A program made the translations under genes and the position numbers. Below, piece by piece: positions 4,480 to 24,065 of a stretch of DNA of 25,058 bases (within the stretch, counting starts at the first letter, position 1; each line of letters starts with the position of its first letter). The stretch is from a virus. Its lineage: Duplodnaviria; Heunggongvirae; Uroviricota; Caudoviricetes. The notes under the pieces are model-generated. The model was given only the letters and a program-made list of their open reading frames with translations. It did not search any database and was not told the DNA's origin. Where the stretch lies: IMG/VR virus record IMGVR_UViG_2529292919_000017; one strand, 5' to 3'.

Positions 4480-4489
4480 TAAGCGGAGC

Positions 4490-8392: not shown

Positions 8393-8418
8393 CCATCTAC
8401 ATCACTGAGCTAATAACA

Positions 8419-8445: not shown

Positions 8446-8464
8446 ATTTGGGGGAGAGTAAATC

Positions 8465-8791: not shown

Positions 8792-8813
8792 GCAGAATTA
8801 AGTCGAGGTAACA

Positions 8814-9963: not shown

Positions 9964-10130
9964 TTGACCAAAATCGAAGTTACGAACAAGAAAGCGTCGA
10001 GCGAGCTTTAACGTGCGCTAACTGCGGTCAGAAGCTGCATGTGCTGGAAGTTCACGTGTGTGAGCACTGTTGCGCAGAACTTATGAGCGATCCGAATAGC
10101 TCAATGTACGAGGAAGAAGACGATGAATGA
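9960..10130 (+). CDS. ninF: NinF-like small cysteine-rich protein
   Basis: GTG 9960 overlapping the ninE stop (or in-frame ATG at 9918); [56 protein letters not shown] has a CxxC...CxxCC pattern. Confidence 0.55.
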
Positions 10131-11135: not shown

Positions 11136-11494
11136 ACGAATATCAGTTTGTGCTTCCATACCCGCCGTCGGTGAATACCTACTGGCGAAGACGGGGAGGC
11201 CAATACTACATCAGCGATAAAGGCCAGAAATACCGAAAAGACGTTCAGCAAATCATTCGCCAACTCAAGTTAGACATTTTCACCAAATCACGACTCCGTA
11301 TCAAAGTCATCGCAGACGTTCCAGACTCCCGCCGCCGCGACCTCGACAACATCCTGAAAGGTTTACTCGACTCCCTTATCCACGCCGGATTTGCGGAAGA
11401 CGACGAGCAATTCGATGACATTCGCGTAATTCGTGGTGTGAAAGTACCAGGCGGAAGGCTTGGAATAAAAATCACCGAACTGGAGAACACATGA
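11132..11494 (+). CDS. rusA: RusA Holliday-junction resolvase
   Basis: 120-aa ORF; PYPPSVNTYW and DSRRRDLDNILKGLLDSL match the RusA catalytic region; ATGA overlap with the preceding gene. Confidence 0.85.
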   Translation: MNEYQFVLPYPPSVNTYWRRRGGQYYISDKGQKYRKDVQQIIRQLKLDIFTKSRLRIKVIADVPDSRRRDLDNILKGLLDSLIHAGFAEDDEQFDDIRVIRGVKVPGGRLGIKITELENT

Positions 11495-11625
11495 ACAAAG
11501 CATTCGAACGATATATGCGCCAGCGTTATGGCAATCGCTACGATCTTACCCGCGATGCTTACGGCTTCTACTGTCGTGAGGTTGTGAAACGAATGTTTGA
11601 AGTGTGGTGTCATTGCAAAGGATAG
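11491..11625 (+). CDS. ylcG: YlcG-like small protein (44 aa)
   Basis: ATG 11491 overlaps the rusA stop; MNKAFERYMRQRYGNRYDLTRDAYGFYCREVVKRMFEVWCHCKG; same position as ylcG between rusA and Q in DLP12. Confidence 0.5.
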   Translation: MNKAFERYMRQRYGNRYDLTRDAYGFYCREVVKRMFEVWCHCKG

Positions 11626-11636
11626 AGGGGAAGACG

Positions 11637-12260
11637 ATGAGACTCGAAAGCGTAGCTAAATTTCATTCGCCAAAAAGCCCGATGATGAGCGACTCACCAC
11701 GGGCCACGGCTTCTGACTCTCTTTCCGGTACTGATGTGATGGCTGCTATGGGGATGGCGCAATCACAAGCCGGATTCGGAATGGCTGCATTCTGCGGTAA
11801 GCACGAACTCAGCCAGAACGACAAACAAAAGGCTATCAACTATCTGATGCAATTTGCACACAAGGTATCGGGGAAATACCGTGGCGTGGCAAAGCTTGAA
11901 GGAAATACTAAGGCAAAGGTACTGCAAGTGCTCGCAACATTCGCTTATGCGGATTATTGCCGTAGTGCCGCGACGCCGGGCGCAAGATGCAGAGATTGCC
12001 ACGGTACAGGCCGTGCGGTTGATATAGCCAAAACAGAGCAGTGGGGGATAGTTGCTGAGAAAGAGTGCGGAAGATGTAAAGGCGTCGGTTATTCAAGAAT
12101 GCCAGCAAGCGCCGCATATCGCGCTGTGACGATGCTAATCCCAAACCTTACCCAACCCACCTGGTCACGCACTGTTAAGCCGCTGTATGACGCTCTGGTT
12201 GTGCAATGCCACAAGGAAGAGTCAATCGCAGACAACATTTTGAATGCGATCACACGTTAG
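11637..12260 (+). CDS. Q: late-gene antiterminator Q (lambda type)
   Basis: ATG 11637 after AGAGGGGAAG; MRLESVAKFHSPKSPMMSDSPRATASDSLSGTDVMAAMGMAQSQAGFGMAAFCGKHELSQ... matches lambda Q from memory over 207 aa. Confidence 0.9.
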   Translation: MRLESVAKFHSPKSPMMSDSPRATASDSLSGTDVMAAMGMAQSQAGFGMAAFCGKHELSQNDKQKAINYLMQFAHKVSGKYRGVAKLEGNTKAKVLQVLATFAYADYCRSAATPGARCRDCHGTGRAVDIAKTEQWGIVAEKECGRCKGVGYSRMPASAAYRAVTMLIPNLTQPTWSRTVKPLYDALVVQCHKEESIADNILNAITR

Positions 12261-12302
12261 CGCCATGATTGCCACGGATGGCAACATATTAACGGCATAA
12301 TA

Positions 12303-12335
12303 TTGACTTTTTGAATAACTTTGGGGAAACTTGAC
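12303..12335 (+). promoter_or_regulatory. pR'-like late promoter with qut, -10 hexamer altered relative to lambda
   Basis: TTGACT (12303-12308), spacer TTTTGAATAACTTTGGG, then GAAACT (12326-12331), parallel to lambda TTGACT-TATTGAATAAAATTGGG-TAAATT; resemblance to lambda appears to stop just after TTGAC at about 12335. Confidence 0.45.
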
Positions 12336-12472
12336 ACCAATAATGGGCGTTTTTTACATGTCATTGATGAGTCTCAATAACCTGCCGCCGAGTAGTTTTT
12401 ATGCTCTGAATTGTATTTGTGTAGTAAACATGCTGACTGCAATGTAATAGAGTTTTTTTAGCCTGTAACCTC

Positions 12473-12502
12473 TTGACGGCATTGAATTGCTTTTGTTATG
12501 AG
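12473..12502 (+). promoter_or_regulatory. candidate sigma70 promoter for the membrane-protein gene
   Basis: -35 TTGACG (12473-12478), 17-18 bp spacer, -10 TTATGA/TATGAG (12496-12502), about 40 bp upstream of ATG 12540. Confidence 0.3.
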
Positions 12503-12539
12503 TTGTAAGCCAATGTTATCATCTTGTATTGGGGTGGTT

Positions 12540-13256
12540 ATGAAGGATGGTGCACTGCTCAGGAGTTCTTCACTTTTTATTGCCTACATGGGATGCCTTG
12601 GATGGGGGAGTGCTTATTTCTATGGATGGGGTACTTCTTTTTACTACGGCTTCCCATGGTGGATTGTAGGTGCAGGTGTTGATGATGTTGCCAGAAGTTT
12701 ATTTTTTGCAGTTATCGTCATTGCTATATTTCTTATCGGTTGGGGTATTGGTGTTGTATTCTTTTTCGCAGTGAAAAGAAAACATTCTATGCAAGAGCTA
12801 AATGTATTTCGCCTTTATTTTGCTGTGGAATTATTGTTTGTGCCGGCAATTATTGAGTTTTCTATATTGAGACAGAAGATTCAGGTACCTCTTTTGCTAC
12901 TGTCAGCAGCGATTGCGCTGGCGGTTACAATTTCGATAAGATCTTATGGGCGATTTTTATCGGTATCATGCTTCTATGATAAGCCATTTATAAAAAAACA
13001 TTTTTTTGAGATTGTGATGATTGCTTTTGTGGCATATTTCTGGTTTTTTTCATTTCTGACAGGATATTACAAACCGCAGTTTAAGAAAGAATATGAAATG
13101 ATTAATTATAATGATGGTTGGTATTATGTTCTTGCTCGTTATGATAATTGTCTGGTTTTGTCTACTTCTTTCAATGCAGGTAGTAAAAGGTTTGTCATTT
13201 ATCAATCAGCACAAGATAAGAATCTTCAGGTTGATATTGTAAGGACCAGAATTTAA
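12540..13256 (+). CDS. polytopic inner-membrane protein of unknown function (about 238 aa, 5-6 predicted TM helices plus a C-terminal soluble tail)
   Basis: ATG 12540 after GGGGTGG (track ORF starts at 12498). Hydrophobic segments LFIAYMGCLGWGSAYFYGW, LFFAVIVIAIFLIGWGIGVVFFFAV, LYFAVELLFVPAIIEFSIL, VPLLLLSAAIALAVTISI, FFEIVMIAFVAYFWFFSFLTGYY; C-terminal YNDGWYYVLARYDNCLVLSTSFNAGSKRFVIYQ. Visibly AT-rich relative to the flanking phage genes. Confidence 0.65.
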   Translation: MKDGALLRSSSLFIAYMGCLGWGSAYFYGWGTSFYYGFPWWIVGAGVDDVARSLFFAVIVIAIFLIGWGIGVVFFFAVKRKHSMQELNVFRLYFAVELLFVPAIIEFSILRQKIQVPLLLLSAAIALAVTISIRSYGRFLSVSCFYDKPFIKKHFFEIVMIAFVAYFWFFSFLTGYYKPQFKKEYEMINYNDGWYYVLARYDNCLVLSTSFNAGSKRFVIYQSAQDKNLQVDIVRTRI

Positions 13257-13686
13257 TTGGCTGCATAAATAATATTTTAAGTTGCAAGTTGGCTATTCGT
13301 AGGAATAGAACCTTAGGCATGCTGAATGCGTTTTCTGAACATTGTTTTATAAACTGTGTCTGCTTGCTGTTGTGATCCTGCTTTTAGTGATGGTGATGAT
13401 GGATTTCACCAGCAGGATAATGTTGGTACTGACTGATGGCGCTCTGGTCTGCGGCATTGTGGTATTGCTGTGGCCGATGATGAAAAAACAGAATGAATAA
13501 TCCTTGACTTTTTTGTTTACTGTTTATTAAAAAATCAACCGCATGGTGAATCCTCCTTGGAGGGGCTAAATGATCGAGTTTTAAGGGCACGTAGCGAGTT
13601 CTGTTTGATCATTGCAGAACTTAGCGGGAGGCGCCATGCGTACATCACTAATGTTATTTCCTTCTATCATTTTCCTTGTGAGTTCT

Positions 13687-13713
13687 GGCTGCGCATGGCG
13701 CGGCCTTTTTTTT
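13687..13713 (+). terminator. rho-independent terminator
   Basis: Stem GGCTGCGC (13687-13694) / GCGCGGCC (13698-13705) with one G-U pair, 3-nt loop, then eight T (13706-13713). Confidence 0.55.
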
Positions 13714-13894
13714 ATGACCTGCCACTGGCAGATGGTCATCCTGTGATTTGATTCCGGTTCCGGCTTTTTAACTCTGTTCCTGTACACGGGAGAAATTCTA
13801 TGTCGATTAATCGTTATGATATTGGTTACAAGAAGTACCACGTATTGTGTTGAGATAGAAAGCATGGTGCCAGAGGTAAATGCAGCAGCATAAT

Positions 13895-13942
13895 AAAAAA
13901 GAGCCAGCGCAGAAGAGAACGGGTAAAAGAGTCTGCGCTGGC
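13895..13942 (-). terminator. rho-independent terminator on the minus strand with no obvious upstream gene
   Basis: Perfect 11-bp stem GCCAGCGCAGA (13903-13913) / TCTGCGCTGGC (13932-13942) with an 18-nt loop; the plus-strand A-run 13895-13900 gives a U-run after the stem on the minus strand. Confidence 0.45.
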
Positions 13943-14058
13943 GTGGGGATATTCCCCGTGGAGAAATGATATGTAACACACATCGGGAACCTTTCTATAT
14001 AAACATTATCATTATTGTCAATCATAACAGTCAGGTATTATGACGTTTATGCATCAGG

Positions 14059-14086
14059 GCCATCAGGAATTAACTGGTGGCTTTTT
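14059..14086 (+). terminator. rho-independent terminator immediately upstream of the holin gene (tR'-like)
   Basis: Stem GCCATCAG (14059-14066) / CTGGTGGC (14074-14081) with one G-U pair, 7-nt loop, then TTTTT (14082-14086); about 35 bp before the S start. Confidence 0.5.
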
Positions 14087-14121
14087 ATTGTTGTCAGCTT
14101 CCGGATAACGGGAGACGGGGT

Positions 14122-14337
14122 ATGTACCAGATGGAAAAAATAACAACAGGTGTGTCATACACCACGTCAGCGGTGGGGACGGGATACTGGCTACTGCAGT
14201 TGCTGGACAAAGTCTCCCCATCCCAGTGGGTGGCAATAGGCGTATTGGGTAGCCTGGTGTTTGGCTTGCTGACGTATCTGACAAACCTTTATTTCAAGAT
14301 TAAAGAAGATAAGCGTAAGGCTGCGAGAGGTGAATAA
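14122..14337 (+). CDS. S: holin S (phage-21 type, dual-start motif)
   Basis: ATG 14122 after GGGAGACGGGG; [45 protein letters not shown]... with two Met codons separated by YQ (antiholin/holin starts); matches the S21-type holin from memory. Confidence 0.85.
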
Positions 14338-14834
14338 TGTCGCCATCATTACGCAAGGCTGTTGCTGCTGCTATTGGTGGTGGGGCTGTTGCCATAGCGT
14401 CTGTGCTCATCACTGGTCCGAGTGGTGACGATGGCCAGGAAGGTGTCAGCTACATACCATACGAAGATATCGTTGGCGTATGGACTGTATGTCACGGACA
14501 CACCGGAAAAGACATCATTCCCGGTAAAACGTATACCGAAGCAGAATGCAAAGCCCTCCTGAATAAAGACCTTGCCATGGTCGCCAGACAAATTAACCCG
14601 TACATCAAAGTCGATATACCGGAAACAACGCGCGGCGCTCTTTACTCGTTCGTTTACAACGTGGGCGCTGGTAATTTCAGAACATCGACGCTTCTTCGCA
14701 AAATAAACCAGGGTGATATCAAAGGCGCATGTGACCAGCTACGTCGCTGGACATACGCTGGCGGTAAGCAATGGAAAGGGCTGATGACCCGTCGTGATAT
14801 TGAGCGTGAAGTCTGTTTGTGGGGGCAGCAATGA
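14337..14834 (+). CDS. R: SAR endolysin R (lysozyme with N-terminal signal-anchor-release domain)
   Basis: 165-aa ORF; N-terminal [21 protein letters not shown] is a Gly/Ala-rich SAR segment; followed by lysozyme-like sequence; start overlaps the S stop (TAATG). Confidence 0.85.
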
Positions 14835-15298
14835 GCAGGGTAACCGCGATTATCTCCGCTCTGGTTATTTGCATCATCCTCTGCCTGTCATGGGCTGTTA
14901 ATCATTACCGTGATAACGCCATCGCCTACAAAGAGCAGCGTGATAAAAAAGTCAGTGAGCTGAAGCAGGCGACCGCCACCATTACTGACATGCAGCAACG
15001 CCAGCGTGCTGCTGATGTACTCGATGCTAAATACACGAAGGAGTTAGCCAATGCGAAAGCTGAAAATGATGCTCTTCGGCGTAAGCTTGATAATGGTGGT
15101 CGGGTGCTCGTCAAAGGAAAATGCCCTGTGCCAGCCTCAGCCAAAACCTCCAGCTCCTCCGGCATGGGCAATGATGCCACCGTCGAACTCTCTTCAGTTG
15201 CTGGACGAAACGTTCTCGGTATCCGGGACGGAATTATCCGTGACCAAACAGCACTGAGAACGCTTCAGGAGTACATCAGGACGCAATGCCTGAAATAA
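14831..15298 (+). CDS. Rz: Rz i-spanin
   Basis: ATG 14831 (ATGA overlap with the R stop); [34 protein letters not shown]... matches the lambda Rz N-terminus from memory. Confidence 0.85.
15051..15257 (+). CDS. Rz1: Rz1 o-spanin lipoprotein, embedded in Rz in the +1 frame
   Basis: 68-aa ORF inside Rz; signal peptide ending in lipobox VVGC, then a proline-rich stretch [11 protein letters not shown] as in lambda Rz1. Confidence 0.75.
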
Positions 15299-15328
15299 TT
15301 TTTTTGCAAATCACAAAGTCAATTTAAT

Positions 15329-15354
15329 GAGCCTCGCGATGCGGGGCTTTTTTA
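15329..15354 (+). terminator. rho-independent terminator after the lysis cassette
   Basis: Stem GCCTCGC (15331-15337) / GCGGGGC (15341-15347) with one G-U pair, loop GAT, then TTTTTT (15348-15353). Confidence 0.55.
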
Positions 15355-15496
15355 TGTCCGCAGTAAACGCGCATCTCACGCGCATATTAACGAGAGCCTT
15401 TCAGTAAGCGAGCCTGAGAAATGCCGTTATAGGTGGCGACCTCTCTCGGGCGGCTTTTCTGTGAGACAGGCTCACTTTCTAAAAGGTAAAGACGCT

Positions 15497-16021
15497 ATGA
15501 ATAATCATTCAGTTATTCCAGCCTTCGACTTCCGAGAAATGGTGCAAGCCAAAAACGGAGAGGTCGTTACCACATCCAGAAAAATTGCCAAGTACTTCGG
15601 CAAGCGACACGGTGATGTTCTCAGGAAAATCGAGCAGGTTAAGGCTGATTGCTCGCGTGAGTTTAGCCAACGCAATTTTGCGTCGGCTGATTATATCGAT
15701 GAGCAGGGCAAGGTTCGCCCGATGTACAGCCTGACGAAAGATGGCTGGATCATGGTTGTGATGGGGTTCACCGGGAAAGCTGCTGCGGCAATCAAGGAGA
15801 GCTATATCGCAGCATTCAACTGGATGGCAGAGCAACTGAGCCGCCGCATGGCAATTGGCGAAGAAATGCAGCACCGCTACGCCATCAAAGAAACACGCTC
15901 AAAGCTGAAAGGTACGATCGGCAGTCGGTTAATGAACGAACGGAAGAAAGAGAAGCGTGTCCTGGCTGTCGAGCATGAATACATTTTGCAGGTGACACAG
16001 CCTGAACTGCTGATTAATTGA
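15497..16021 (+). CDS. Rha-family phage regulatory protein
   Basis: ATG 15497 (the track ORF starts at GTG 15461); FREMVQAKNGEVVTTSRKIAKYFGKRHGDVLRKIEQV is the Rha-type N-terminal motif; lies between Rz and cos. Confidence 0.65.
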   Translation: MNNHSVIPAFDFREMVQAKNGEVVTTSRKIAKYFGKRHGDVLRKIEQVKADCSREFSQRNFASADYIDEQGKVRPMYSLTKDGWIMVVMGFTGKAAAAIKESYIAAFNWMAEQLSRRMAIGEEMQHRYAIKETRSKLKGTIGSRLMNERKKEKRVLAVEHEYILQVTQPELLIN

Positions 16022-16155
16022 AGATGTCATTACAAAGCCTATCTACGGGTGGGCTTGATAATGGCTTATACCCTGCACGGGATAACTTAACTGATATCCC
16101 TTTTAACGGATAAAGGTATTCAAGCCTGACACATCATGCGCTGTATCGTCGCCGT

Positions 16156-16218
16156 ATTCCCGCATTAACCATGATCGTAGCCCGACGGGGAATTCCTTCT
16201 GCGTGAGTGTGCGGGAAT
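16156..16218. repeat. nested inverted-repeat element in the cos-proximal non-coding region
   Basis: ATTCCCGCA (16156-16164) and TGCGGGAAT (16210-16218) are perfect inverted repeats enclosing an inner palindrome CCCGACGGGG (16181-16190). In revcomp the block resembles a lambda segment between bor and cos as I recall it. Confidence 0.4.
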
Positions 16219-16439
16219 AATCAAAAACGATGCACACCGGGTTTTTACCGCGTTTATGATTCGTGGGTTTGTCCCTCATGCTCGCCAGTCCTGTGCGGGG
16301 GTGGAAGAAACAGGACGCTCACACAGATTCTTGTAGGTACGATGCTATTCCTTTCTGGATTATCCCGATGCCATTCATGCAGGGCGCTGTATCAGACGTT
16401 CGTCATGGCTGTCAGGCTGACGGGTCCTCCTGGTGGGGT

Positions 16440-16636
16440 GGCCTGCCACGGGGCGGGAGCGTCGCGGAAAAAGGCTAGTTTTTGAAATTTCATTCGTCAT
16501 CACCACTGCTGTAATTGATTGATATTGCAGTAGTTTTATTTTTGCGGTGTCGATTTTGATTGTTTTTTGTTCATCGCTAACACCGTTTGCCTAAAGTTGT
16601 TCGCAAGATGCATGTTTAAAACATTCTGGAGCGGGT
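16440..16636 (+). other. cos site (cosN with cosB-like region) upstream of the terminase small subunit
   Basis: ACGGGGCGGGAGCGTCGCGG (16448-16467) aligns with lambda ACGGGGCGGCGACCTCGCGG; the downstream TTTTTGAAATTTC parallels lambda TTTATGAAAATTTTC; about 170 bp before the Nu1-like start, as in lambda. Confidence 0.5.
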
Positions 16637-17131
16637 ATGGATCGAGAGTTAAAAAATCTGACGCTGAATATCAGTCAACTGGCGGCACTGTCAGGTGTAC
16701 ATCGCCAGACTGCTGCGGCAAGGCTGCAAAATCTACCCGTTGCAGGGGGGCATGAAAGCAACCTCAAGCTTTATCGGGTGGTTGATATTGTGTCGGCATT
16801 TCTGGCATTGCCACCGCCGGTTGCAGAAGGCGAAATGGACGCGCATGAGCGCAAAGCCTGGTATCAGTCTGAACGTGAGCGTCTTAAGTTCGAACAGGAA
16901 ACGGCACAACTCATTCCGGCCAGTGATGTCAGACGGGAGTTTGCCATCTGGGCAAAAGCGGTCGTGCAGGTGCTGGAGACATTACCGGATATTCTGGAAC
17001 GTGACTGCGGTCTGCAGCCTGCCGCTGTGAGCCGTGTTCAGTCCATTATTGATGATCTGCGCGATCAGATAGCCCTGCGGGTGACTGAAGCAGGTGCGGA
17101 TGATGAGGAGGAATTACAGCAGGAGGAGTAA
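16637..17131 (+). CDS. terminase small subunit (Nu1 family)
   Basis: 164-aa ORF; N-terminal LTLNISQLAALSGVHRQTAAARLQNLP is the Nu1-type HTH; acidic C-terminus; stop overlaps the start of the next gene. Confidence 0.8.
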   Translation: MDRELKNLTLNISQLAALSGVHRQTAAARLQNLPVAGGHESNLKLYRVVDIVSAFLALPPPVAEGEMDAHERKAWYQSERERLKFEQETAQLIPASDVRREFAIWAKAVVQVLETLPDILERDCGLQPAAVSRVQSIIDDLRDQIALRVTEAGADDEEELQQEE

Positions 17132-19200
17132 TGCTGAATCAGGAAACCGCAAAGGCAGCACGAACCGATTCAGGTTATATCCTTCGCGCACCGAGACGAA
17201 TGCGGGTTGCTGATGCCGTTGCTCAGTATATGCGGGTGCCCATGGGGGCCGGGAACTCAGTCCCGTGGGATCCGCTGGTGGCACCGTATGTTATTGAGCC
17301 GATGAACTGCCTGGCCTCGCGTGAATACGACGCAGTGATATTTGTTGGCCCGGCACGAACTGGCAAGACTATCGGCCTGATTGACGGCTGGGTGATTTAC
17401 AACGTGATTTGCGATCCTGCGGATATGCTGATCATTCAGATGACGGAGGAAAAAGCCCGCGAACACTCCAAAAAACGACTTGCCAGAACGTTTCGCGTCA
17501 GCCCGGAAGTGGTCAGTCGCCTGAGTCCGAACAAAAATGACAACAACGTTTATGACAGAACATTCCTTGCTGGCAACTACCTGAAAATCGGCTGGCCGTC
17601 AGTCAATATCATGTCCTCATCAGATTATAAATGCGTGGCGCTGACGGATTATGACCGTTTTCCGGAAGATATTGATGGCGAGGGGGATGCCTTCTCTCTT
17701 GCCTCAAAACGTACCACCACATTTATGTCCAGTGGTATGACGCTGGTGGAGAGTTCCCCCGGCAGGGATGTGAAGGATGTGAAATGGCGACGGACTTCAC
17801 CGCATGAGGCTCCACCAACCACGGGGATACTGTCGCTCTATAACCGTGGCGATCGCCGTCGCTGGTACTGGCCCTGTCCACACTGTGGTGAGTATTTTCA
17901 GCCCTGCGGCGATGTGGTTGCTGGTTTCCGTGATATTGCCGATCCCGTGCTGGCAAGTGAGGCGGCTTATATTCAGTGTCCTTCCTGTTCAGGACGGATT
18001 ATGCCTGAACAAAAACGTGAGCTGAACGGACGTGGGGTCTGGTTGCGGGATGGTGAATCCATCAATGCGGATGGCAGTCGTTATGGTGATCCCCGACGCT
18101 CACGTATTGCGTCATTCTGGATGGAGGGTCCGGCAGCTGCTTACCAGACACTCTCGCAACTCGTTTACAAACTGCTTACTGCAGAACAGGAATACGAGAC
18201 AACCGGAAGTGAAGAAACACTCAAGACGGTTATCAATACCGACTGGGGATTACCTTATCTTCCCCGTGCCAGCATGGAGCAACGAAAAAGTGAACTGCTT
18301 GAGCAGCGGGCAGAGCCAGTTCCTTCCCGCAGTGTGCCGGATGGCGTTAATTTCCTGGTGGCGACAGTTGATGTGCAGGCGGGACGTCATCGCCGTTTTG
18401 TGGTTCAGGTAACGGGCTATGGCAGCCGTGGCGAACGCTGGATTATTGATCGTTACAACATCACGCAGTCATTGCGCGGTGACAGCGACGGGGAGAGCCA
18501 GCGAATTGATCCGGCCAGCTATCCGGAAGACTGGGATGTCCTGCTGACGGATGTTTTTCATAAAAGCTGGCCGCTGGCCTCCGATCCTTCTCAACAAATG
18601 CGACTGATGGCAATGGCGGTGGACTCCGGCGGTGAAGACGGGGTCACTGATAATGCCTATAAATTCTGGCGTCGTTGCCGTCGTGATGGCCTTGGTAAAC
18701 GTATTTACCTGTTTAAGGGCGACAGCATCCGGCGCGCAAAACTGATCACCCGTACATTCCCTGATAACACCGGACGAACGGGCCGACGGGCGCAGGCCGC
18801 AGGTGATGTGCCGCTCTGGCTTCTTCAGACGGATGCCCTGAAAGACCGGATGAATAACGCGTTATGGCGTGACTCGCCAGGTCCCGGCTATGTGCATTTC
18901 CCTGACTGGCTGGGGAGCTGGTTTTACGACGAACTGACGTATGAAGAGCGGAGTAGTGACGGGAAATGGAGTAAGCCGGGTCGCGGTGCCAACGAAGCTT
19001 TTGACCTGATGGTGTATGCCGAGGCTCTGGTCATTCTGCATGGATACGAAAAGATCCGCTGGCCGGATGCACCGGAGTGGGCGAGCCGGGAAACCTGGCT
19101 GGAGTGTGTCCCGGACAGTACCGAACCGTCATCCTCACCGGAACCGGTATCCACGCCTGTTAAAAAACAAAAACGGAAGAAAAGTAACCGGCTCATTTAA
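17131..19200 (+). CDS. terminase large subunit (GpA family); the last five codons and stop come from the IS66-family terminal repeat
   Basis: 689-aa ORF; Walker-A-like FVGPARTGKT; overall GpA-like. Codons 19184-19200 (S-N-R-L-I-stop) lie inside the IS inverted repeat GTAACCGGCTCATTTAA, so the native C-terminus is replaced. Confidence 0.85.
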   Translation: MLNQETAKAARTDSGYILRAPRRMRVADAVAQYMRVPMGAGNSVPWDPLVAPYVIEPMNCLASREYDAVIFVGPARTGKTIGLIDGWVIYNVICDPADMLIIQMTEEKAREHSKKRLARTFRVSPEVVSRLSPNKNDNNVYDRTFLAGNYLKIGWPSVNIMSSSDYKCVALTDYDRFPEDIDGEGDAFSLASKRTTTFMSSGMTLVESSPGRDVKDVKWRRTSPHEAPPTTGILSLYNRGDRRRWYWPCPHCGEYFQPCGDVVAGFRDIADPVLASEAAYIQCPSCSGRIMPEQKRELNGRGVWLRDGESINADGSRYGDPRRSRIASFWMEGPAAAYQTLSQLVYKLLTAEQEYETTGSEETLKTVINTDWGLPYLPRASMEQRKSELLEQRAEPVPSRSVPDGVNFLVATVDVQAGRHRRFVVQVTGYGSRGERWIIDRYNITQSLRGDSDGESQRIDPASYPEDWDVLLTDVFHKSWPLASDPSQQMRLMAMAVDSGGEDGVTDNAYKFWRRCRRDGLGKRIYLFKGDSIRRAKLITRTFPDNTGRTGRRAQAAGDVPLWLLQTDALKDRMNNALWRDSPGPGYVHFPDWLGSWFYDELTYEERSSDGKWSKPGRGANEAFDLMVYAEALVILHGYEKIRWPDAPEWASRETWLECVPDSTEPSSSPEPVSTPVKKQKRKKSNRLI

Positions 19201-19236
19201 ACCGTCTGGTCTGTTTCCTCCGGCTCTACAAAAATA

Positions 19237-19914
19237 ATGTCCATCATTTTTAATGGACACTATCGTATGAAACACCGGACCTGGATCACTGAAGCTTTAC
19301 GTCTTCACTTTGAAGAACATTTACCCCGGGTTGTGGCCGGGCGTCGCCTGGGTGTACCAAAATCAACAGTTTGTAGTATGTTCGTGCGCTTTCGGAGAGC
19401 TGGCCTTTCGTGGCCTTTGCCCGCAGGCATGTCGGAGCAGGAACTTGATGCCTGCCTTTACGGACAATTTTCCACGGTACCAGTCGTACGTCCTGAAAGC
19501 ACCGTTATATCCGAAGCCCCCGTGGTAAAAAAACGTCCCCGGCGGCCCAACTTCCCTTATGAGTTTAAAATCGCCTTAGTGGAGCAGTCACTGCAGCCCG
19601 GAGCCTGTGTGGCGCAGATCGCCCGGGAAAACGGAATCAACGATAACCTGCTCTTCAACTGGCGCCATCAATACCGGAAAGGTGGCCTGCTGCCTTCCGG
19701 AAAAAATATGCCGGCACTGCTTCCCGTGACGTTAACGCCGGAGCCGGATAATAAAATCCCGGCCCCCGCACAGGAACCAGAGCAGATAAATACACCGTCC
19801 GACAGTCTGTGTTGTGAGCTGGTTCTGCCGGCCGGAACTCTCAGGCTTAAAGGTAAACTGACGCCGGCGTTATTACAGACACTTATCCGCGAAATAAAAG
19901 GGAGCAGCCACTGA
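19237..19914 (+). CDS. IS66-family accessory protein (orfA-type, HTH)
   Basis: 225-aa ORF; the C-terminal half (…PNFPYEFKIALVEQSLQPGACVAQIARENGINDNLLFNWRHQYRKG…) resembles IS66 TnpA-type proteins; the true start is uncertain (ATG 19237 or 19267). Confidence 0.65.
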   Translation: MSIIFNGHYRMKHRTWITEALRLHFEEHLPRVVAGRRLGVPKSTVCSMFVRFRRAGLSWPLPAGMSEQELDACLYGQFSTVPVVRPESTVISEAPVVKKRPRRPNFPYEFKIALVEQSLQPGACVAQIARENGINDNLLFNWRHQYRKGGLLPSGKNMPALLPVTLTPEPDNKIPAPAQEPEQINTPSDSLCCELVLPAGTLRLKGKLTPALLQTLIREIKGSSH

Positions 19915-20261
19915 TGATATCTCTCCCTGCAGGTTCGCGTATCTGGCTGGTTGCAGGTATCACCGATATGCGAAATGGCTTTAACGGCCTGGCATCAAAA
20001 GTTCAGAACGTCCTGAAGGATGACCCGTTCTCCGGACACCTGTTCATCTTCCGCGGACGCCGGGGTGACCAGATAAAAGTGTTGTGGGCTGACAGTGACG
20101 GACTGTGCCTCTTCACCAAACGCCTGGAGCGGGGCCGCTTCGTCTGGCCAGTCACCCGTGACGGCAAGGTGCACCTTACTCCGGCTCAGTTATCCATGCT
20201 TCTTGAAGGTATCAACTGGAAGCACCCGAAACGAACGGAACGCGCTGGAATCCGCATATAA
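19914..20261 (+). CDS. IS66-family Orf2 (TnpB-type) protein
   Basis: 115-aa ORF MISLPAGSRIWLVAGITDMRNGFNGLASKVQNVL... typical of IS66 Orf2; start overlaps the upstream stop. Confidence 0.85.
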   Translation: MISLPAGSRIWLVAGITDMRNGFNGLASKVQNVLKDDPFSGHLFIFRGRRGDQIKVLWADSDGLCLFTKRLERGRFVWPVTRDGKVHLTPAQLSMLLEGINWKHPKRTERAGIRI

Positions 20262-20280
20262 CCCGTTGTAAAGTGAGGAT

Positions 20281-21852
20281 ATGGACACCTCACTTGCTCA
20301 TGAGAACGCCCGCCTGCGGGCACTGTTGCAGACGCAACAGGACACCATCCGCCAGATGGCTGAATACAACCGCCTGCTCTCACAGCGGGTGGCGGCTTAT
20401 GCTTCCGAAATCAACCGGCTGAAGGCGCTGGTTGCGAAACTGCAACGTATGCAGTTCGGTAAAAGCTCAGAAAAACTTCGTGCAAAAACCGAACGGCAGA
20501 TACAGGAAGCACAGGAGCGAATCAGCGCACTTCAGGAAGAAATGGCGGAAACGCTGGGTGAGCAATATGACCCGGTACTGCCATCCGCCCTGCGCCAGTC
20601 TTCAGCCCGTAAACCGTTACCGGCCTCACTTCCCCGTGAAACCCGGGTTATCCGGCCGGAAGAGGAATGCTGTCCTGCCTGTGGTGGTGAACTCAGTTCT
20701 CTGGGATGTGATGTGTCAGAGCAACTGGAGCTTATCAGCAGCGCCTTTAAGGTTATCGAAACACAACGTCCGAAACAGGCCTGTTGCCGGTGCGACCATA
20801 TCGTGCAGGCACCAGTACCTTCAAAACCCATTGCACGCAGTTATGCCGGAGCGGGGCTTCTGGCCCATGTTGTCACCGGGAAATATGCAGACCATCTGCC
20901 GTTATACCGCCAGTCAGAAATATACCGTCGTCAGGGAGTGGAGCTGAGCCGTGCCACACTGGGGCGCTGGACAGGTGCTGTTGCTGAACTGCTGGAGCCG
21001 CTGTATGACGTCCTGCGCCAGTATGTGCTGATGCCCGGTAAAGTCCATGCTGATGATATCCCCGTCCCGGTCCAGGAGCCGGGCAGCGGTAAAACCCGGA
21101 CAGCCCGGCTGTGGGTCTACGTCCGTGATGACCGTAACGCCGGTTCACAGATGCCCCCGGCGGTCTGGTTCGCGTACAGTCCGGACCGGAAAGGTATCCA
21201 TCCACAAAATCACCTGGCCGGTTACAGCGGTGTGCTTCAGGCCGATGCTTACGGTGGTTACCGGGCGTTATACGAATCCGGCAGAATAACGGAAGCCGCG
21301 TGTATGGCTCATGCCCGGAGAAAAATCCACGATGTGCATGCAAGAGCGCCCACCTACATCACCACGGAAGCCCTGCAGCGTATCGGTGAACTGTATGCCA
21401 TCGAGGCAGAGGTCCGGGGCTGTTCAGCAGAACAGCGTCTGGCGGCAAGAAAAGCCAGAGCCGCGCCACTGATGCAGTCACTGTATGACTGGATACAGCA
21501 ACAGATGAAAACACTGTCGCGTCACTCAGATACGGCAAAAGCGTTCGCATACCTGCTGAAACAGTGGGATGCACTGAACGTGTACTGCAGTAATGGCTGG
21601 GTGGAAATCGACAACAACATCGCAGAGAACGCCTTACGGGGAGTGGCCGTAGGCCGGAAAAACTGGATGTTCGCGGGTTCCGACAGCGGTGGTGAACATG
21701 CGGCGGTGTTGTACTCGCTGATCGGCACATGCCGTCTGAACAATGTGGAGCCAGAAAAGTGGCTGCGTTACGTCATTGAACATATCCAGGACTGGCCGGC
21801 AAACCGGGTACGCGATCTGTTGCCCTGGAAAGTTGATCTGAGCTCTCAGTAA
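20281..21852 (+). CDS. IS66-family transposase (TnpC-type)
   Basis: 523-aa ORF with an N-terminal coiled-coil/leucine-zipper region, a CxxC...CxC zinc motif (CPACGG...CRCDH) and a long DDE-type catalytic region, as in IS66 transposases. Confidence 0.9.
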
Positions 21853-21882
21853 ATATCAATACGGTTCTGACGAGTCGCTTAC

Positions 21883-22038
21883 AGATAAAAAGCAGATACA
21901 GTGTGTGGTAAGACCGCTGCAAATCCTGCGTGCTGACGGGACGTGGGAAAATATTGGCGGGATGAAATAGCCGACGGGTTCACAAAAAAACCGGAGTCCG
22001 GCTCCGGTTTTTGTTGTCATGCCATGGTGATGTTTGTT
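21883..22038 (+). repeat. copy 1 of a ~150-bp direct repeat, carrying a palindromic terminator-like hairpin
   Basis: AGATAAAAAGCAGATACAGTG...GGCGGGATGAAATAGCCGACGGGTTCAC-AAAAAAACCGGAGTCCGGCTCCGGTTTTTGTTGTCATG... is repeated at 22771-22915 with about 90 percent identity; hairpin CCGGAG/CTCCGG at 21991-22007 flanked by an A-run and a T-run. Begins at the IS66 right end. Confidence 0.7.
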
Positions 22039-22084
22039 ATGACTCCCTGTGTTTGGAATGAATATTTAAATAGGGAGTTTTGTC

Positions 22085-22663
22085 ATGCCATCATTAGTTT
22101 CAGGTATTCAATCATCCTCACTTTCCACCGGAATGCAGGTTCTTCGTGCTCAAATGGCCGCCAGTGGTGGTGGAGAAATTACAGTAGGCGGACAGACGGT
22201 TAGTATCACATATAGTGAAACGGATGGTCGCTTTCTGGCGAGTGGGGGCAATAACAGTTTGCTTTCTGGATTATTACTTACAGGGCTTAATGGTGGTCCT
22301 GAAGCGCTCAGGGATATAATGTTAAGAATGGTTTCAGGTTCAGGTAACACACAATCACATGGTGATATTGAGGGGAAAATATCACAATATAAGTTTTCGG
22401 TTAATACGCAGAGCCTTCAGTGCCCATCCGAGGCGGTTCGATGCCCAATTATACTGGATAAGCCAGAAGAAGGTGTGTTTGTTAAAAATTCAGAAGATTC
22501 TTTGGTTTGTACCTTATTTGATTCGGTTTCTTTTTCTCATTTGGTTCGTGACGGTGGGAGGCACCCGCTAACACGAGAACCAATAACGTCATCAATGATT
22601 GTAAGTCCAGAACAATGTATTTATGACCAAGCCAAAGGAAACTTTGTCATAAAGGATAAGTGA
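22085..22663 (+). CDS. nleG: NleG-family T3SS effector (U-box-type E3 ubiquitin ligase)
   Basis: 192-aa ORF in an AT-rich context; C-terminal region VRCPIILDKPEEGVFVKNSEDSLVCTLFDSVSFSHLVRDGGRHPLTREPITSSMIVSPEQCIYD has the pattern I recall for the NleG U-box domain. Family call needs a search. Confidence 0.6.
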   Translation: MPSLVSGIQSSSLSTGMQVLRAQMAASGGGEITVGGQTVSITYSETDGRFLASGGNNSLLSGLLLTGLNGGPEALRDIMLRMVSGSGNTQSHGDIEGKISQYKFSVNTQSLQCPSEAVRCPIILDKPEEGVFVKNSEDSLVCTLFDSVSFSHLVRDGGRHPLTREPITSSMIVSPEQCIYDQAKGNFVIKDK

Positions 22664-22770
22664 AATAAATATTACCCAAGCTATATGTTAACTGCCAGTT
22701 GCTTATATGAAATGCTACAGATGTTCAGGGTATAAGGATGTGGTAATAACACAGGTGGTGTACTGGATGC

Positions 22771-22915
22771 AGATAAAAAGCATATACAGTGAGTGGAGAG
22801 GCCGCTAATCAGTCGTGCTGACGGGGAAATATTGGCGGGATGAAATAGCCGACGAGTTCACAAAAACCGGAGTCCGGCTCCGGTTTTTGTTGTCATGTCC
22901 GGTGGATGTTTGTTA
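22771..22915 (+). repeat. copy 2 of the same direct repeat, between the NleG-like and NleB-like genes
   Basis: Same block as 21883-22038, including the hairpin CCGGAGTCCGGCTCCGG (22867-22883) followed by TTTTT. Confidence 0.7.
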
Positions 22916-23024
22916 GGAAAGCAAAGATGGCAAAACTGCTGGAGGTTTTGTGGTTGAGTATGCCAATATAATTAATAGATTAAAGAGTTAGTTGTGAAGA
23001 AAATATGGATAAACAGGACGACGA

Positions 23025-24005
23025 ATGCTTTCACCGATAAGGACAACTTTCCATAACTCAGTAAATATAGTGCAGAGTTCACCCTGTCAAACGGTTTCTT
23101 TTGCAGGAAAGGAATATGAGTTAAAGGTCATTGATGAAAAAACGCCTATTCTTTTTCAGTGGTTTGAACCTAATCCTGAACGATATAAGAAAGATGAGGT
23201 TCCAATAGTTAATACTAAGCAGCATCCCTATTTAGATAATGTCACAAATGCGGCAAGGATAGAGAGTGATCGTATGATAGGTATTTTTGTTGATGGCGAT
23301 TTTTCAGTCAACCAAAAGACTGCTTTTTCAAAATTGGAACGAGATTTTGAAAATGTAATGATAATCTATCGGGAAGATGTTGACTTCAGTATGTATGACA
23401 GAAAACTATCAGATATTTATCATGATATTATATGTGAACAAAGGTTACGAACTGAAGACAAAAGAGATGAATACTTGTTGAATCTGTTAGAGAAAGAGCT
23501 GAGGGAAATTTCAAAGGCGCAGGATTCTTTGATTTCTATGTATGCAAAGAAAAGAAATCATGCATGGTTTGATTTCTTCAGAAATTTAGCCTTATTAAAA
23601 GCAGGAGAGATATTCAGGTGCACATATAATACAAAGAATCACGGTATTTCATTCGGGGAGGGGTGTATCTATCTTGATATGGATATGATACTTACAGGTA
23701 AGCTTGGTACAATATATGCTCCTGATGGAATTTCAATGCATGTGGATCGTCGTAATGATAGTGTAAATATTGAAAATAGTGCAATAATTGTTAACCGTAG
23801 TAATCATCCTGCTCTACTTGAGGGACTTTCTTTTATGCATAGTAAAGTAGATGCTCATCCATATTATGATGGTTTGGGGAAAGGAGTTAAGAAATATTTT
23901 AATTTTACACCATTACATAATTATAATCATTTTTGTGACTTTATTGAGTTTAACCACCCTAATATAATCATGAACACAAGTCAGTATACATGCAGTTCAT
24001 GGTAA
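23025..24005 (+). CDS. nleB2: NleB-family T3SS effector (arginine GlcNAc-transferase), NleB2-like
   Basis: 326-aa ORF; blocks VSFAGKEY, EKTPILFQWFE, DVDFSMYD, KLSDIY, WFDFFRNLA, GCIYLDMDMI (DxD motif), LYAPDGI, VNRSNHPALL, VDAHPYYDGLGKG, FCDFIEF match NleB as I recall it. Confidence 0.8.
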   Translation: MLSPIRTTFHNSVNIVQSSPCQTVSFAGKEYELKVIDEKTPILFQWFEPNPERYKKDEVPIVNTKQHPYLDNVTNAARIESDRMIGIFVDGDFSVNQKTAFSKLERDFENVMIIYREDVDFSMYDRKLSDIYHDIICEQRLRTEDKRDEYLLNLLEKELREISKAQDSLISMYAKKRNHAWFDFFRNLALLKAGEIFRCTYNTKNHGISFGEGCIYLDMDMILTGKLGTIYAPDGISMHVDRRNDSVNIENSAIIVNRSNHPALLEGLSFMHSKVDAHPYYDGLGKGVKKYFNFTPLHNYNHFCDFIEFNHPNIIMNTSQYTCSSW

Positions 24006-24065
24006 ATGAATTTGATATAGTTTATTTTGTTGTAATAAATGATTTGCAGGGTATTAGATATAAAC

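Follow-up and report, generated by a model that had tools for sequence, protein, structure and literature searches.

A repeat that flanks an nleG effector gene is identified here, by alignment, as the 3' end of a lambdoid tail-fibre gene of the Phage_fiber_C type (PF06820), together with the predicted terminator of that gene and ~30 nt of conserved junction. The two copies lie in a 25,058-nt stretch of viral DNA (IMG/VR record IMGVR_UViG_2529292919_000017, Caudoviricetes), all of which is referred to below as the window. Judged by the same alignments, copy 1 represents the true end of the gene, truncated by a deletion associated with the insertion sequence ISCro1, and copy 2 is a non-coding, frameshifted pseudogene fragment that is fused to the 3' flank of nleG. 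The gene order nleG-remnant-nleB2 in the window has the sequence pattern of a chimera whose switch point is in the hairpin of copy 2. To this explanation as a whole, i.e., tail-fibre end plus terminator as the repeat, copy 2 as a relic, cargo swapped by short homology and an ISCro1-associated deletion, we assign a probability of roughly three in four.

These data offer a sequence-level picture of how an effector locus was assembled in the prototype strain of enteropathogenic Escherichia coli (EPEC), with the tail-fibre fragment and its terminator as the joint. A wide range of effector genes is preceded by the same joint in those EHEC and EPEC prophage loci that were sampled. No new mechanism is involved: lambdoid prophages are already known to exchange DNA by short homology at conserved boundaries and to decay through IS elements, and the repeat lies at the sites of recombination by which related prophages exchanged their effector cargo, a case of ordinary phage mosaicism. 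For the annotation of prophage ends, such fragments are pseudogene relics and not small ORFs or new elements. The picture may also aid the design of breakpoint analyses for effector repertoires.

The repeat and its predicted terminators

The initial annotation had described two near-identical blocks around the NleG gene, and both were found (copy 1, 21883-22040; copy 2, 22742-22917; Table 1). The gene order that it had claimed, i.e., an IS66-family element, copy 1, the NleG gene (PF06416), copy 2 and NleB2, was borne out by NCBIfam and Pfam. Copy 1 starts at the IS end, as had been proposed, but copy 2 begins at 22742, ~28 nt to the left of the earlier boundary. Over the shared part (21882/3-22040 aligned with 22770-22917), the copies have ~88% identity with indels of 3, 7 and 2 nt; the description as near-identical is right for the right 100 nt alone and too strong for the left 60 nt, where identity is 80-86%. 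A 21-mer, AACCGGAGTCCGGCTCCGGTT, has exactly two occurrences in the window, compared with 0 expected from 100 shuffles. Both copies carry the hairpin CCGGAGTCCGGCTCCGG, which has an A-run on one side and a T-run on the other.

Table 1. Coordinates of the repeat copies and neighboring features in the window
Feature	Position	Strand	Description
Terminase large-subunit gene (GpA type)	17131..19183	+	Last few codons cut off by the IS; left edge of the putative deletion
ISCro1 (IS66 family: tnpA, tnpB, transposase)	19184..21882	+	NCBIfam transpos_IS66; 99.96% identity to the copy in locus L124
Copy 1, coding part	21883..21970	+	Last 29 codons and stop TAG (21968-21970) of the 89-aa Phage_fiber_C gene (E2348C_1039)
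Hairpin 1	21984..22012		A-run 21984-21990 (A7), core 21991-22007 CCGGAG-TCCGG-CTCCGG, T5 22008-22012
Copy 1, post-hairpin block	22013..22040		Conserved, GTTGTCATG........GATGTTTGTTA; ends at the mosaic boundary 22040/22041
nleG (E2348C_1040)	22085..22663	+	192 aa, T3SS effector of the NleG family; Pfam T3SS_NleG, E = 1.6e-43
nleG 3' flank	22664..22741	+	Degenerate paralogue-type hairpin cut at its 3' arm; ends at the fusion with the tail-fibre fragment
Copy 2, coding-derived part	22742..22848	+	Decayed Phage_fiber_C gene fragment, ~nt 153 to the stop
Hairpin 2	22860..22888		A5 22862-22866, core 22867-22883 CCGGAG-TCCGG-CTCCGG, T5 22884-22888
Copy 2, post-hairpin block	22889..22917		Variable 8-mer; it and all to its right identical to intact gene-terminator-nleB2 loci
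nleB2	23025..24005	+	326 aa; NCBIfam NleB family, E = 2.9e-210; first gene of the nleB2-nleC module
nleC	24039..25058	+	Zinc protease effector of the same module; Pfam Peptidase_M85, E = 4e-115; RefSeq annotation in locus L001

In the EPEC strain E2348/69, homology to copy 1 runs on leftward into an intact gene. Copy 1 is 100% identical to positions 4001-4089 of the E2348/69 locus L001, which lie inside an annotated 270-bp CDS (3820-4089), and it is without the first 181 nt of the Phage_fiber_C gene. The 89-aa product of this tail-fibre gene matches Pfam PF06820 (Phage_fiber_C) with E = 5e-36. Copy 2 aligns by blastn to nt 153-321 of the gene plus flank at 85.8% identity. Alignments and translations revealed indels of 1, 3 and 7 nt and stop codons in all three frames, and relative to each sampled intact allele copy 2 has at least 10 mismatches in addition to indels. 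Both copies in the window are therefore gene fragments, and an intact Phage_fiber_C reading frame is kept in neither.

When folded as RNA on either strand, the hairpins gave -21.5 to -24.6 kcal/mol (z = -2.8 to -5.1), with -21.7 and -21.5 kcal/mol for hairpin 1 and -24.6 and -22.8 kcal/mol (z = -5.1 and -4.1) for hairpin 2. The stem consists of 6 bp (CCGGAG/CTCCGG), is lengthened by A/U pairs and encloses a loop of 3-5 nt, and the U-tract that follows reads UUUUUG on the + strand and U5-U7 on the - strand. Hairpin 1 starts 14 nt past the tail-fibre stop codon, and hairpin 2 is the first strong terminator-like hairpin 3' of nleG. A homologous hairpin is annotated as 'terminator' in phage 434 (OL657226.1, 21256-21280).

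The exact hairpin core was present in 108 of 127 copies that were collected with an anchor picked independently of the hairpin, which partly corrects for a bias to apparent invariance, as the loci had first been sampled by an exact hairpin 25-mer. Among the 19 variant cores, 12 differ in the loop only, four (L153) combine a loop change with a G-C to G-U change in the stem, and the remaining three are broken within the 3' arm and run on into a different hairpin. This variant set is small, and double compensatory changes were seen in none of its 19 copies. Both hairpins have a G+C-rich stem-loop followed by a U-tract, are located at the end of a transcription unit and have a stem that is kept through variation, i.e., the features of intrinsic terminators. 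We describe them as terminator-like and predict that they can be read on both strands. The bidirectional anatomy that had been noted earlier thus agrees with the stable folds of both strands and with the predicted terminator annotated in phage 434.

Neither hairpin was listed by a simple consensus promoter/terminator scan of the window; our guess is that the scan missed them as the T-run is taken up into the extended stem. In E2348/69 RNA-seq data (PMC8550237 Table S2), the tail-fibre gene has a base mean of 4.3, as against 294.5 for nleG and 110.9 for nleB2. These values fit a division into separate units of transcription at each hairpin, but, as per-gene counts and not 3'-end maps, they are also explained by promoter strength alone.

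A further functional role has to be considered, in which the ~75-nt block (stop codon, hairpin, ...GATGTTTGTTA) would be a selected 'cargo adaptor' that acts as a bidirectional terminator, a preferred crossover site and perhaps part of a promoter, with the relics as spacers. We consider this unlikely. Such a block would be kept by lambdoid phages of attaching-effacing E. coli; its terminator would insulate the late operon, and a preferred crossover site would serve the phage recombinases. The promoter part would comprise TTGTCA (22014-22019) and TGtTA (22035-22039), with the rest of the -10 element supplied by the cargo. If this were true, relics of the copy 2 type would be functional spacers that let effector genes stack as independent transcription units. 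The consensus scan found no convincing nleG promoter. A hand-read candidate, which is weak and speculative, pairs the same -35 element with an extended -10 (TGtTATGAC, 22035-22043), and this -10 is not conserved among cargo types. For the position of the nleB2 promoter relative to copy 2, we relied on a review (PMC7142665).

Origin of copy 2 and exchange of effector cargo

The product of nleG is labeled DUF1076 in RefSeq, and the gene has a G+C content of 0.43, versus 0.48-0.49 in the flanking tail-fibre sequence. Its 3' flank was judged by alignment and folds against the nleG flanks in three other loci (L084, L122 and L037). A truncated paralogue-type hairpin is located right at the fusion point, 22741/22742, where GGT is common to both parents, although a microhomology of 3 nt is weak evidence by itself. 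The unbroken nleG-type hairpin would read GCCACAGAC...GTCTGTGGC and would be expected in the parental state of the fusion. The identical junction between nleG and the remnant occurs in 384 genomes, once per genome, and the unit containing nleG and the remnant is also found in EDL933 and Stx1a phages (93.9% over 1040 nt). An earlier illegitimate recombination may have joined nleG and its 3' flank to the interior of a tail-fibre gene, which would have yielded the unit tail-fibre gene - terminator - nleG - tail-fibre fragment - terminator. This fusion would have removed the terminator hairpin of nleG itself, so that the hairpin of the relic would now act as the nleG terminator.

Alternatively, copy 2 could have been made in place, by tandem duplication of the gene end within one prophage and later insertion of nleG, with no recombination between phages. 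Unequal sister-strand exchange classically yields two direct copies in one locus, and a Phage_fiber_C domain also stands at the C-terminal end of the preceding tail-fibre protein (437 aa), which suggests that the region was duplicated before. This origin is nevertheless improbable. The left end of copy 2 abuts the truncated nleG-type hairpin, which fits a deletion or fusion that removed DNA and not an insertion, and the unit precedes different cargo in different prophages. Moreover, the copies differ by ~12% plus indels, yet the nleB2 side is 100% identical to other phages, which points to different histories of the two sides.

The repeat family is not limited to this locus. The initial annotation had proposed a search for more copies elsewhere, and these were found in 708 of the 5426 complete E. 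coli genomes covered (median, 12 copies per genome; ~7,600 copies in total); in 120 IMG/VR loci, 106 of the 146 copies were full-length genes. It had also proposed to test whether effector genes adjoin the repeat at other loci and to look for variants that lack nleG and keep one copy. T3SS effector genes predominate directly downstream of the copies in the prophage loci sampled (first downstream ORF: NleG, 54; NleB, 18; NleH, 12; others), and an intact gene-terminator-nleB2 arrangement without nleG is present in 460 genomes. Two clusters of downstream ORFs, of 291 aa and 180 aa, matched no family in NCBIfam or Pfam. The nleB2-nleC cargo module is normally located directly 3' of an intact tail-fibre gene, and the order seen in the window, nleG-remnant-nleB2, occurs in 5 genomes. 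In E2348/69, the order is J, lom, a tail-fibre gene, the Phage_fiber_C gene, nleG, nleB2, nleC, an nleH fragment and nleD, followed by torT. Effectors directly follow tail-fibre genes and the cargo differs among related prophages, as in an exchangeable effector locus (EEL).

At 22040/22041, the major-allele frequency among 82 distinct intact-type sequences drops from ~0.9 to ~0.45. The sequence to the right of this boundary depends on the cargo gene. Compared with loci in which an intact gene precedes nleB, the window is 100% identical from 22880 rightward and 85-90% identical to the left of it; compared with the O157 nleG-remnant unit, it is 95-100% identical up to ~22879 and unrelated beyond. 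The identity profiles thus change partner within ~22858-22899, in hairpin 2, an interval with ~40 nt of plain identity. Because the switch point of the chimera falls in hairpin 2, recombination at the repeat would indeed add or remove an effector unit. The earlier idea of an effector cassette that is gained or lost by recombination between copies stands in this respect, but not as a dedicated cassette system.

In the preferred explanation, the Phage_fiber_C gene is the last of the prophage late operon, and the exchangeable cargo starts directly past its junction sequence. Related prophages would each bear the same ~75-nt terminator block ahead of their own cargo, and short-homology recombination within this block would shift cargo from one phage to another. 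Such a crossover, located in hairpin 2, would have set the nleG unit before the nleB2-nleC module in the lineage of E2348/69. Whereas the chimera itself is apparent from the sequence pattern, the direction of the event, i.e., addition of the nleG unit to an nleB2 phage, is suggested by arrangement counts, in which the O157 clone, being heavily sampled, predominates; in the alternative direction, nleG would have been deleted many times.

A dedicated cassette boundary, comparable to the attC sites of integrons or the att sites of phages, at which a site-specific recombinase inserts and excises effector cassettes, would explain why a single effector gene is bracketed by copies, why the hairpin is a structured imperfect palindrome, why the block precedes many different effector genes and why three loci are broken inside the hairpin arm itself. 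In addition, these effector loci are known to contain attB sites at which one prophage integrates into another (PMC8112680). However, the unit is mostly tail-fibre coding sequence, and no gene for an integrase or site-specific recombinase was found within the window or beside the repeat. Partial copies fall into at least eight left-end classes (q130, 153/167, 155, 195, 197, 199, 271 and 281), and at least four classes, read directly, have unrelated flanks, which would be unexpected for a site-specific reaction. Furthermore, nleG is without equivalent half-sites, having an intact gene on the left and a fragment on the right, and the crossover took place in ~40 nt of plain identity. We regard a dedicated site as very improbable.

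Similarly doubtful is the view that the relic and its hairpin are kept as an Hfq-binding sRNA or sponge derived from the 3'UTR, like the Pas and EcOnc sRNAs of EPEC and EHEC. A stem-loop plus U-tract is a typical 3' module of such RNAs, these prophages are known for many sRNAs, and nleG is well expressed and up in an hfq mutant (log2FC 1.29; PMC8550237 Table S2). Against this, none of the 13 new E2348/69 sRNAs (Table S6) is near 1,084,280 or 1,085,156, and the accessible portions of the interaction tables contain no entry for E2348C_1039, _1040 or _1041. The sRNAs that EHEC Hfq-CRAC placed at conserved prophage positions are 3' of pR', away from the tail-fibre end, and the decay of copy 2 looks neutral. 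Searches of Rfam gave no matches at E <= 1 in 21700-23200 and none at the gathering score across the whole window. A link to the PasA-D sRNAs was also considered and rejected, as their E2348/69 coordinates are off 1,084,280 and 1,085,156 and their genomic context differs.

The ISCro1 element and the proposed ~18-kb deletion

The gene to the left of ISCro1 matches Pfam GpA_ATPase and GpA_nuclease, and positions 18900-19183 of the window align to an intact terminase gene in locus L124. The terminal inverted repeats of ISCro1 are imperfect (GTAACCGGCTC.../GTAAGCGACTC...). Four other ISCro1 copies have perfect 8-bp target duplications; none was found at the element in the window, which has GAAGAAAA on the left and AGATAAAA on the right. 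Positions 1-19183 of the window match 1048278-1065894 of E2348/69 (prophage PP4) at 99.9%, and the match resumes from 21882 onward at 1084171 onward. E2348/69 and the window are 100% identical on the right side of the IS, and E2348/69 has an intact tail-fibre gene and no IS. An ISCro1-associated deletion would have taken ~18 kb, beginning where the terminase gene ends and reaching as far as nt 181 of the tail-fibre gene. Copy 1 seems to start at the IS because this deletion truncated it. The suggestion that the IS had inserted at, or used, the repeat is contradicted by the identical DNA without an IS in E2348/69, by the missing target duplication and by the ~18-kb deletion. The exact IS junctions of the window were found in no complete genome, where matches were made up of pieces from separate places. 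In 129 genomes, ISCro1 is located in or beside the Phage_fiber_C tail-fibre gene. It occupies at least three different positions there, and these repeated insertions fall at other positions than the one in the window.

A mobile or dispersed repeat (a MITE, an IS66-related end or a REP/BIME) that is recognized or carried by the IS66 element would suit the exact abutment of copy 1 on the IS end, the recurrent ISCro1 elements at the tail-fibre gene and the many family copies per genome, but it can be given next to no weight, as E2348/69 has the same DNA with an intact gene and no IS, the unit is not bounded by terminal inverted repeats or target duplications, all sampled copies are at lambdoid tail-fibre gene ends or fragments of them, the other ISCro1 copies examined (L124 and L125; phage and bio-region contexts) have no adjoining repeat, Rfam has no match, and a 19-mer searched for in one genome per species stands in context only in E. 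albertii. We take the 14 unrelated GC-rich genomes with this 19-mer as chance matches; the exact 25-mer had no matches in species-representative genomes. The repeat is thus neither an IS end nor a REP, an identity that the initial annotation had named as one that would refute its effector-cassette reading.

Comparison with known systems

EELs of lambda-like prophages in EHEC and EPEC were reportedly described by Tobe et al. in 2006, and the nleG-nleB2-nleC array of the window is one such locus. According to two reports (PMC3530523, PMC8112680), effectors in EELs are likewise located past the tail-fibre genes at the prophage end, their content varies, and IS elements add to this variation. The descriptions in these reports are at the gene level, and a tail-fibre fragment plus terminator was not found there as a repeated joint.

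The closest counterpart is provided by phage 434 (OL657226.1). There the hairpin follows a 270-bp gene annotated as 'tail fiber assembly chaperone', and the gene end, hairpin and downstream junction are homologous to those described here; the full gene plus hairpin is 99.7% identical to the E2348/69 copy. An nleB pseudogene, nleC and an nleH fragment come next, as they do after copy 2. In contrast, phage 434 has one intact copy and no nleG, whereas the window has one IS-truncated and one decayed copy, and the terminator in phage 434 is likewise a prediction.

As with the phage 'morons' (Juhala et al. 2000, as cited in PMC4104026), nleG behaves as an autonomous unit of lower G+C content that lies between terminator-like hairpins, and it is expressed in the lysogen while neighboring tail genes are silent. 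It differs from morons in that its downstream terminator would be borrowed from a tail-fibre fragment and not be its own.

Prophage-in-prophage integration and the tandem arrangement of prophages at such loci (Nakamura et al. 2021, PMC8112680) provide a route by which a second tail-fibre end and its cargo could be placed after existing effectors. Loss of the intervening phage body would then leave the order effector - tail-fibre fragment - terminator - effector. By this analogy, prophage-in-prophage integration is one candidate for the origin of the 22741/22742 fusion.

Finally, the mosaic joints of lambdoid phages, which the abstract of PMC3945230 attributes to relaxed homologous recombination via Rad52-like recombinases, share with the repeat a short conserved block and a sharp divergence on one side. 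The switch point of the chimera lies inside such a block.

Identity of the repeat

The two direct repeat blocks on either side of nleG (copy 1 and copy 2) lie where the initial annotation had placed them, and NCBIfam and Pfam profile matches bear out its guess that the surrounding genes are IS66, NleG-like and NleB-like. When 21860-22090 and 22748-23030 are aligned, 21882/3-22040 pairs with 22770-22917 at ~88% identity, with three indels (3, 7 and 2 nt); identity is near complete over the right 100 nt of the blocks and 80-86% over the left 60 nt. Each block contains CCGGAGTCCGGCTCCGG with an A-run on one side and a T-run on the other (hairpin 1 and hairpin 2), and a 21-mer around the hairpin core occurs exactly twice in the window and in none of 100 shuffles. 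The observation is real and beyond chance.

Features of the locus, ISCro1 insertions and expression in E2348/69 (window positions unless another locus is named)
Feature	Position or locus	Evidence or sequence	Remark
Hairpin 1	21984-22012	A-run, CCGGAGTCCGGCTCCGG, T-run	both strands fold
Hairpin 2	22860-22888	A-run, CCGGAGTCCGGCTCCGG, T-run	both strands fold
IS66-family element, ISCro1	19184-21882	NCBIfam transpos_IS66	
NleG-family gene	22085-22663	PF06416	
NleB2 gene	23025-24005	NCBIfam NleB family	
NleC gene	24039-25058	PF13678	
ISCro1 target duplication	L124	GGATAACT	
ISCro1 target duplication	L125 (FORC 064)	AGACAAAA	
ISCro1 target duplication	TB354	GGAGCAGG	inside same Phage_fiber_C gene, nt 141-148
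ISCro1 target duplication	O26 RM10386	GAATGACA	start of Phage_fiber_C gene
ISCro1 in Phage_fiber_C gene	L175 1385-4083		TB354
ISCro1 in Phage_fiber_C gene	L176 1385-4083		O26 RM10386
ISCro1 in Phage_fiber_C gene	21882/21883		window
lom	E2348C_1037	PMC8550237	base mean 3.7
Tail fiber	E2348C_1038	PMC8550237	base mean 5.7
Phage_fiber_C gene	E2348C_1039	PMC8550237	base mean 4.3
nleG	E2348C_1040	PMC8550237	base mean 294.5
nleB2	E2348C_1041	PMC8550237	base mean 110.9
nleC	E2348C_1042	PMC8550237	base mean 64.2

Copy 2 matched 297 phage records, nearly all from Stx-converting or lambdoid phages. Where records are annotated, a gene labeled 'tail fiber' underlies the match, which in phage 434 also covers a feature annotated 'terminator'. 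From 21882 to its end, the window is 100% identical to the EPEC strain E. coli E2348/69, whose counterpart of this side lacks the IS and has the gene order J, lom, a 437-aa tail-fiber gene, a 270-bp 'phage tail fiber C-terminal domain' gene, nleG, nleB2, nleC, an nleH fragment, nleD and then torT. Copy 1 consists of the final 88 nt of the 270-bp gene (stop codon 21968-21970) and the hairpin downstream; the 89-aa product matches Pfam PF06820 (Phage_fiber_C, E = 5e-36). Copy 2 corresponds to nt 153-321 of the gene plus flank at 85.8% identity, with losses of 1, 3 and 7 nt and no frame free of stops; it is a pseudogene fragment whose hairpin is still intact. Because the similarity of the copies reaches ~30-45 nt further left in E2348/69 than in the window, the true start of copy 2 is 22742, and the left end of copy 1 is only the IS cut. 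In the E2348/69 locus (L001), the C-terminal end of the 437-aa protein (2505-3818) is a Phage_fiber_C domain (residues 363-426), and the adjoining 89-aa gene (3820-4089) is a second one. Protein-level duplication of this domain predates the DNA relic, copy 2.

A search with copy 2 gave 7,673 hits, spread over 708 of 5,426 complete E. coli genomes (median 12 and maximum 17 per carrier genome); judging from the strains listed, the carriers are largely EHEC-/EPEC-type and rich in lambdoid prophages. With one genome per species, the hairpin 19-mer occurred in a plausible context in Escherichia albertii only. An exact-match scan of IMG/VR with a hairpin 25-mer gave at least 120 loci. Among the matches listed there were 146 copies (106 full-length genes, 37 partial and 3 cut by the locus end), at least two of them in each of 23 loci, and the partial copies fell into 11 classes of blastn start and end, grouped into at least eight left-end positions. 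The first downstream ORF, again among the matches listed, was NleG-family in 54 cases, NleB in 18, NleH in 12 and a HECT-type E3 effector once, and two families without assignment appeared 9 and 7 times. Across 82 distinct intact-type sequences, conservation is ~0.9-1.0 over the gene end, the hairpin and ~28 nt beyond, and falls to ~0.45 at the equivalent of 22040/22041, past which the sequence varies with the cargo gene. In essence, the repeat ends first proposed, 22038 and 22915, coincide with this general mosaic boundary.

Two other effector loci have annotated fragments of another gene, for a 'tail fiber assembly protein': O26 RM10386 (L176 6565-6705) and FORC 064 (L125 5830-5985), where the fragment is just upstream of nleH1-1. 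Tail-gene-end relics among effector genes may be a general feature, extending beyond the Phage_fiber_C type.

Hairpins and transcription

RNA folding of both strands of both copies gave an extended stem-loop (-21.5 to -24.6 kcal/mol, z = -2.8 to -5.1), and hairpin 1 lies 14 nt past the tail-fiber stop codon. When copies were anchored on their coding part, 108 of 127 among the matches listed had the exact hairpin core; 16 of the 19 variants had only a loop change or one G-C pair altered to G-U, and the other 3 are loci with a breakpoint in an arm. This anatomy, the position, the phage 434 annotation and the stem conservation favor a predicted terminator.

RNA-seq base means (DESeq2) were available for E2348/69 under activating conditions (PMC8550237 Table S2). 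Since lom and the tail-fiber genes have values of 3.7-5.7 and nleG 294.5, the nleG promoter is located past hairpin 1. According to a review (PMC7142665), nleB2 carries its own regulatory region, the NRIR motif; the gene is not Ler-controlled, and GrlR and H-NS repress it. Per-gene base means do not measure termination, and the data fit separate transcription units split by the predicted-terminator hairpins. Bidirectionality has an obvious use where cargo converges on the tail-fiber gene, e.g., espK in O26 RM10386. Polymerase modified by Q passes such terminators in lambda late transcription, and therefore read-through past the hairpins into the effector genes would be possible during induction. 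A perfect 10-bp palindrome, TATTTAAATA (22063-22072), precedes the nleG start codon by 13 nt and adjoins a Shine-Dalgarno-like AGGGAG.

ISCro1 and the deletion

The IS had been thought to have inserted at, or used, the repeat. The identical E2348/69 locus is IS-free, and the IS neither made nor used the repeat. Each of four other ISCro1 copies that we examined is flanked by a perfect 8-bp target duplication, which the window copy lacks; its flanks are GAAGAAAA on the left (19176-19183) and AGATAAAA on the right (21883-21890). Window 1-19183 is 99.9% identical to the E2348/69 prophage PP4 (NC_011601, 1048278-1065894), and the sequence from 21882 onwards corresponds to E2348/69 from 1084171. Because the two sides match E2348/69 far apart, the IS sits at a ~18.3-kb deletion that begins at the terminase 3' end and runs to nt 181 of the tail-fiber gene, with ISCro1 joining the terminase end to nt 182. 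The ~18.3 kb missing relative to PP4 comprise portal, capsid and tail genes, and therefore this prophage copy cannot make particles. The exact IS junctions of the window occurred in none of the complete genomes of the collection. The PP4 match covers 92% of 1-19183 in two pieces; thus, ~1.5 kb of the window is absent from, or different at, the E2348/69 position.

Three independent ISCro1 insertions fall within ~190 bp of the small Phage_fiber_C gene (at its start, nt 141-148 and nt 182), and 129 complete genomes have an ISCro1 end no more than a few hundred bp from it, which suggests a local insertion hot spot.

Proposed origin of copy 2 and probable exchange at the hairpin

Between the nleG stop and copy 2 lie 78 nt that can be aligned with the sequence 3' of paralogous nleG genes; there, ~75-115 nt past the stop, the paralogs have a hairpin, GCCACAG(A/G)C...GTCTGTGG. 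At 22700-22745, the 5' arm of this nleG-type hairpin is degenerate and the 3' arm stops exactly where the tail-fiber sequence starts, with a GGT at the join common to both parents; this nleG lost its own terminator at the fusion point. Copy 2 would have arisen by an illegitimate join of 'nleG plus flank' to the interior of a tail-fiber gene. A candidate route is loss of the DNA separating two adjacent or nested prophages, arrangements that are documented at effector loci (Nakamura et al. 2021, PMC8112680). A join-spanning query (22650-22830) found one copy per genome in 384 genomes, with at least 99% identity in 5 and 90-95% in 379; the join happened once. The whole unit (tail-fiber end, nleG, fragment) is 93.9% identical over 1040 nt in EDL933, where nleG7 follows the fragment instead of nleB2, and it also occurs in Stx1a phages.

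Among complete genomes, 460 have the intact gene, terminator and nleB2 (phage 434, Sakai Sp3 type), 384 have the nleG-fragment unit and 5 have the window-type order nleG, fragment, nleB2. Compared with loci carrying the intact gene and nleB, the window is 100% identical from 22880 rightwards and 85-90% identical over 22760-22879; compared with the O157 nleG-fragment unit, it is 95-100% identical to ~22879 and unrelated beyond. By these identity profiles, the window is chimeric. Polymorphisms bracket the switch point to ~22858-22899, i.e., hairpin 2 and its immediate flanks, with ~40 nt of identity. The simplest reading is homologous exchange inside the conserved terminator block, whose parents would be an nleG-fragment phage and a gene-terminator-nleB2-nleC phage; the direction is inferred from arrangement counts, which are skewed by O157 sampling. 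In-place tandem duplication of the gene end followed by nleG insertion is less likely, since the nleG-type hairpin is truncated at the join and the two sides have different histories.

A further sign that the block acts as a joint comes from three IMG/VR loci (L148, L164, L173) in which, just past the tail-fiber stop, the hairpin is broken inside its 3' arm (CCGGAGTCCGGCTCC|ATTTTACC...) and followed by a different hairpin, CCACCTCC-ACGG-GAGGTGG; therefore, the mosaic joint there sits within the terminator stem. The proposal that effectors are gained or lost by recombination between copies survives as a weaker version, in which homology drives exchange at a conserved boundary, and not as a dedicated cassette system. 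The unit's origin in coding sequence, the several unrelated left ends of its partial copies and the absence of a recombinase from the window contradict site-specific movement of cassettes. The context of all copies and the identical E2348/69 locus without the IS likewise contradict a mobile or REP-type repeat. An sRNA role for the relic or hairpin has no support from Rfam or, at the repeat coordinates, from the portion of the E2348/69 RIL-seq tables available, and the conserved-position prophage sRNAs of the EHEC Hfq-CRAC paper are 3' of pR', not at the tail-fiber end.

Rfam at the gathering threshold gave no match in the window. The published Northern probe for PasD1, an Hfq-dependent sRNA of E2348/69 PP4, matches 13674-13697 exactly on the - strand, and the pasD1 gene is therefore expected on the + strand at ~13.6 kb.

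Overall, the repeat is an ordinary relic of a gene end plus predicted terminator, a marker of the recombination joint within this lambdoid effector locus, and the IS-associated deletion is later than this joint. We found no published description of this relic in the literature searched.
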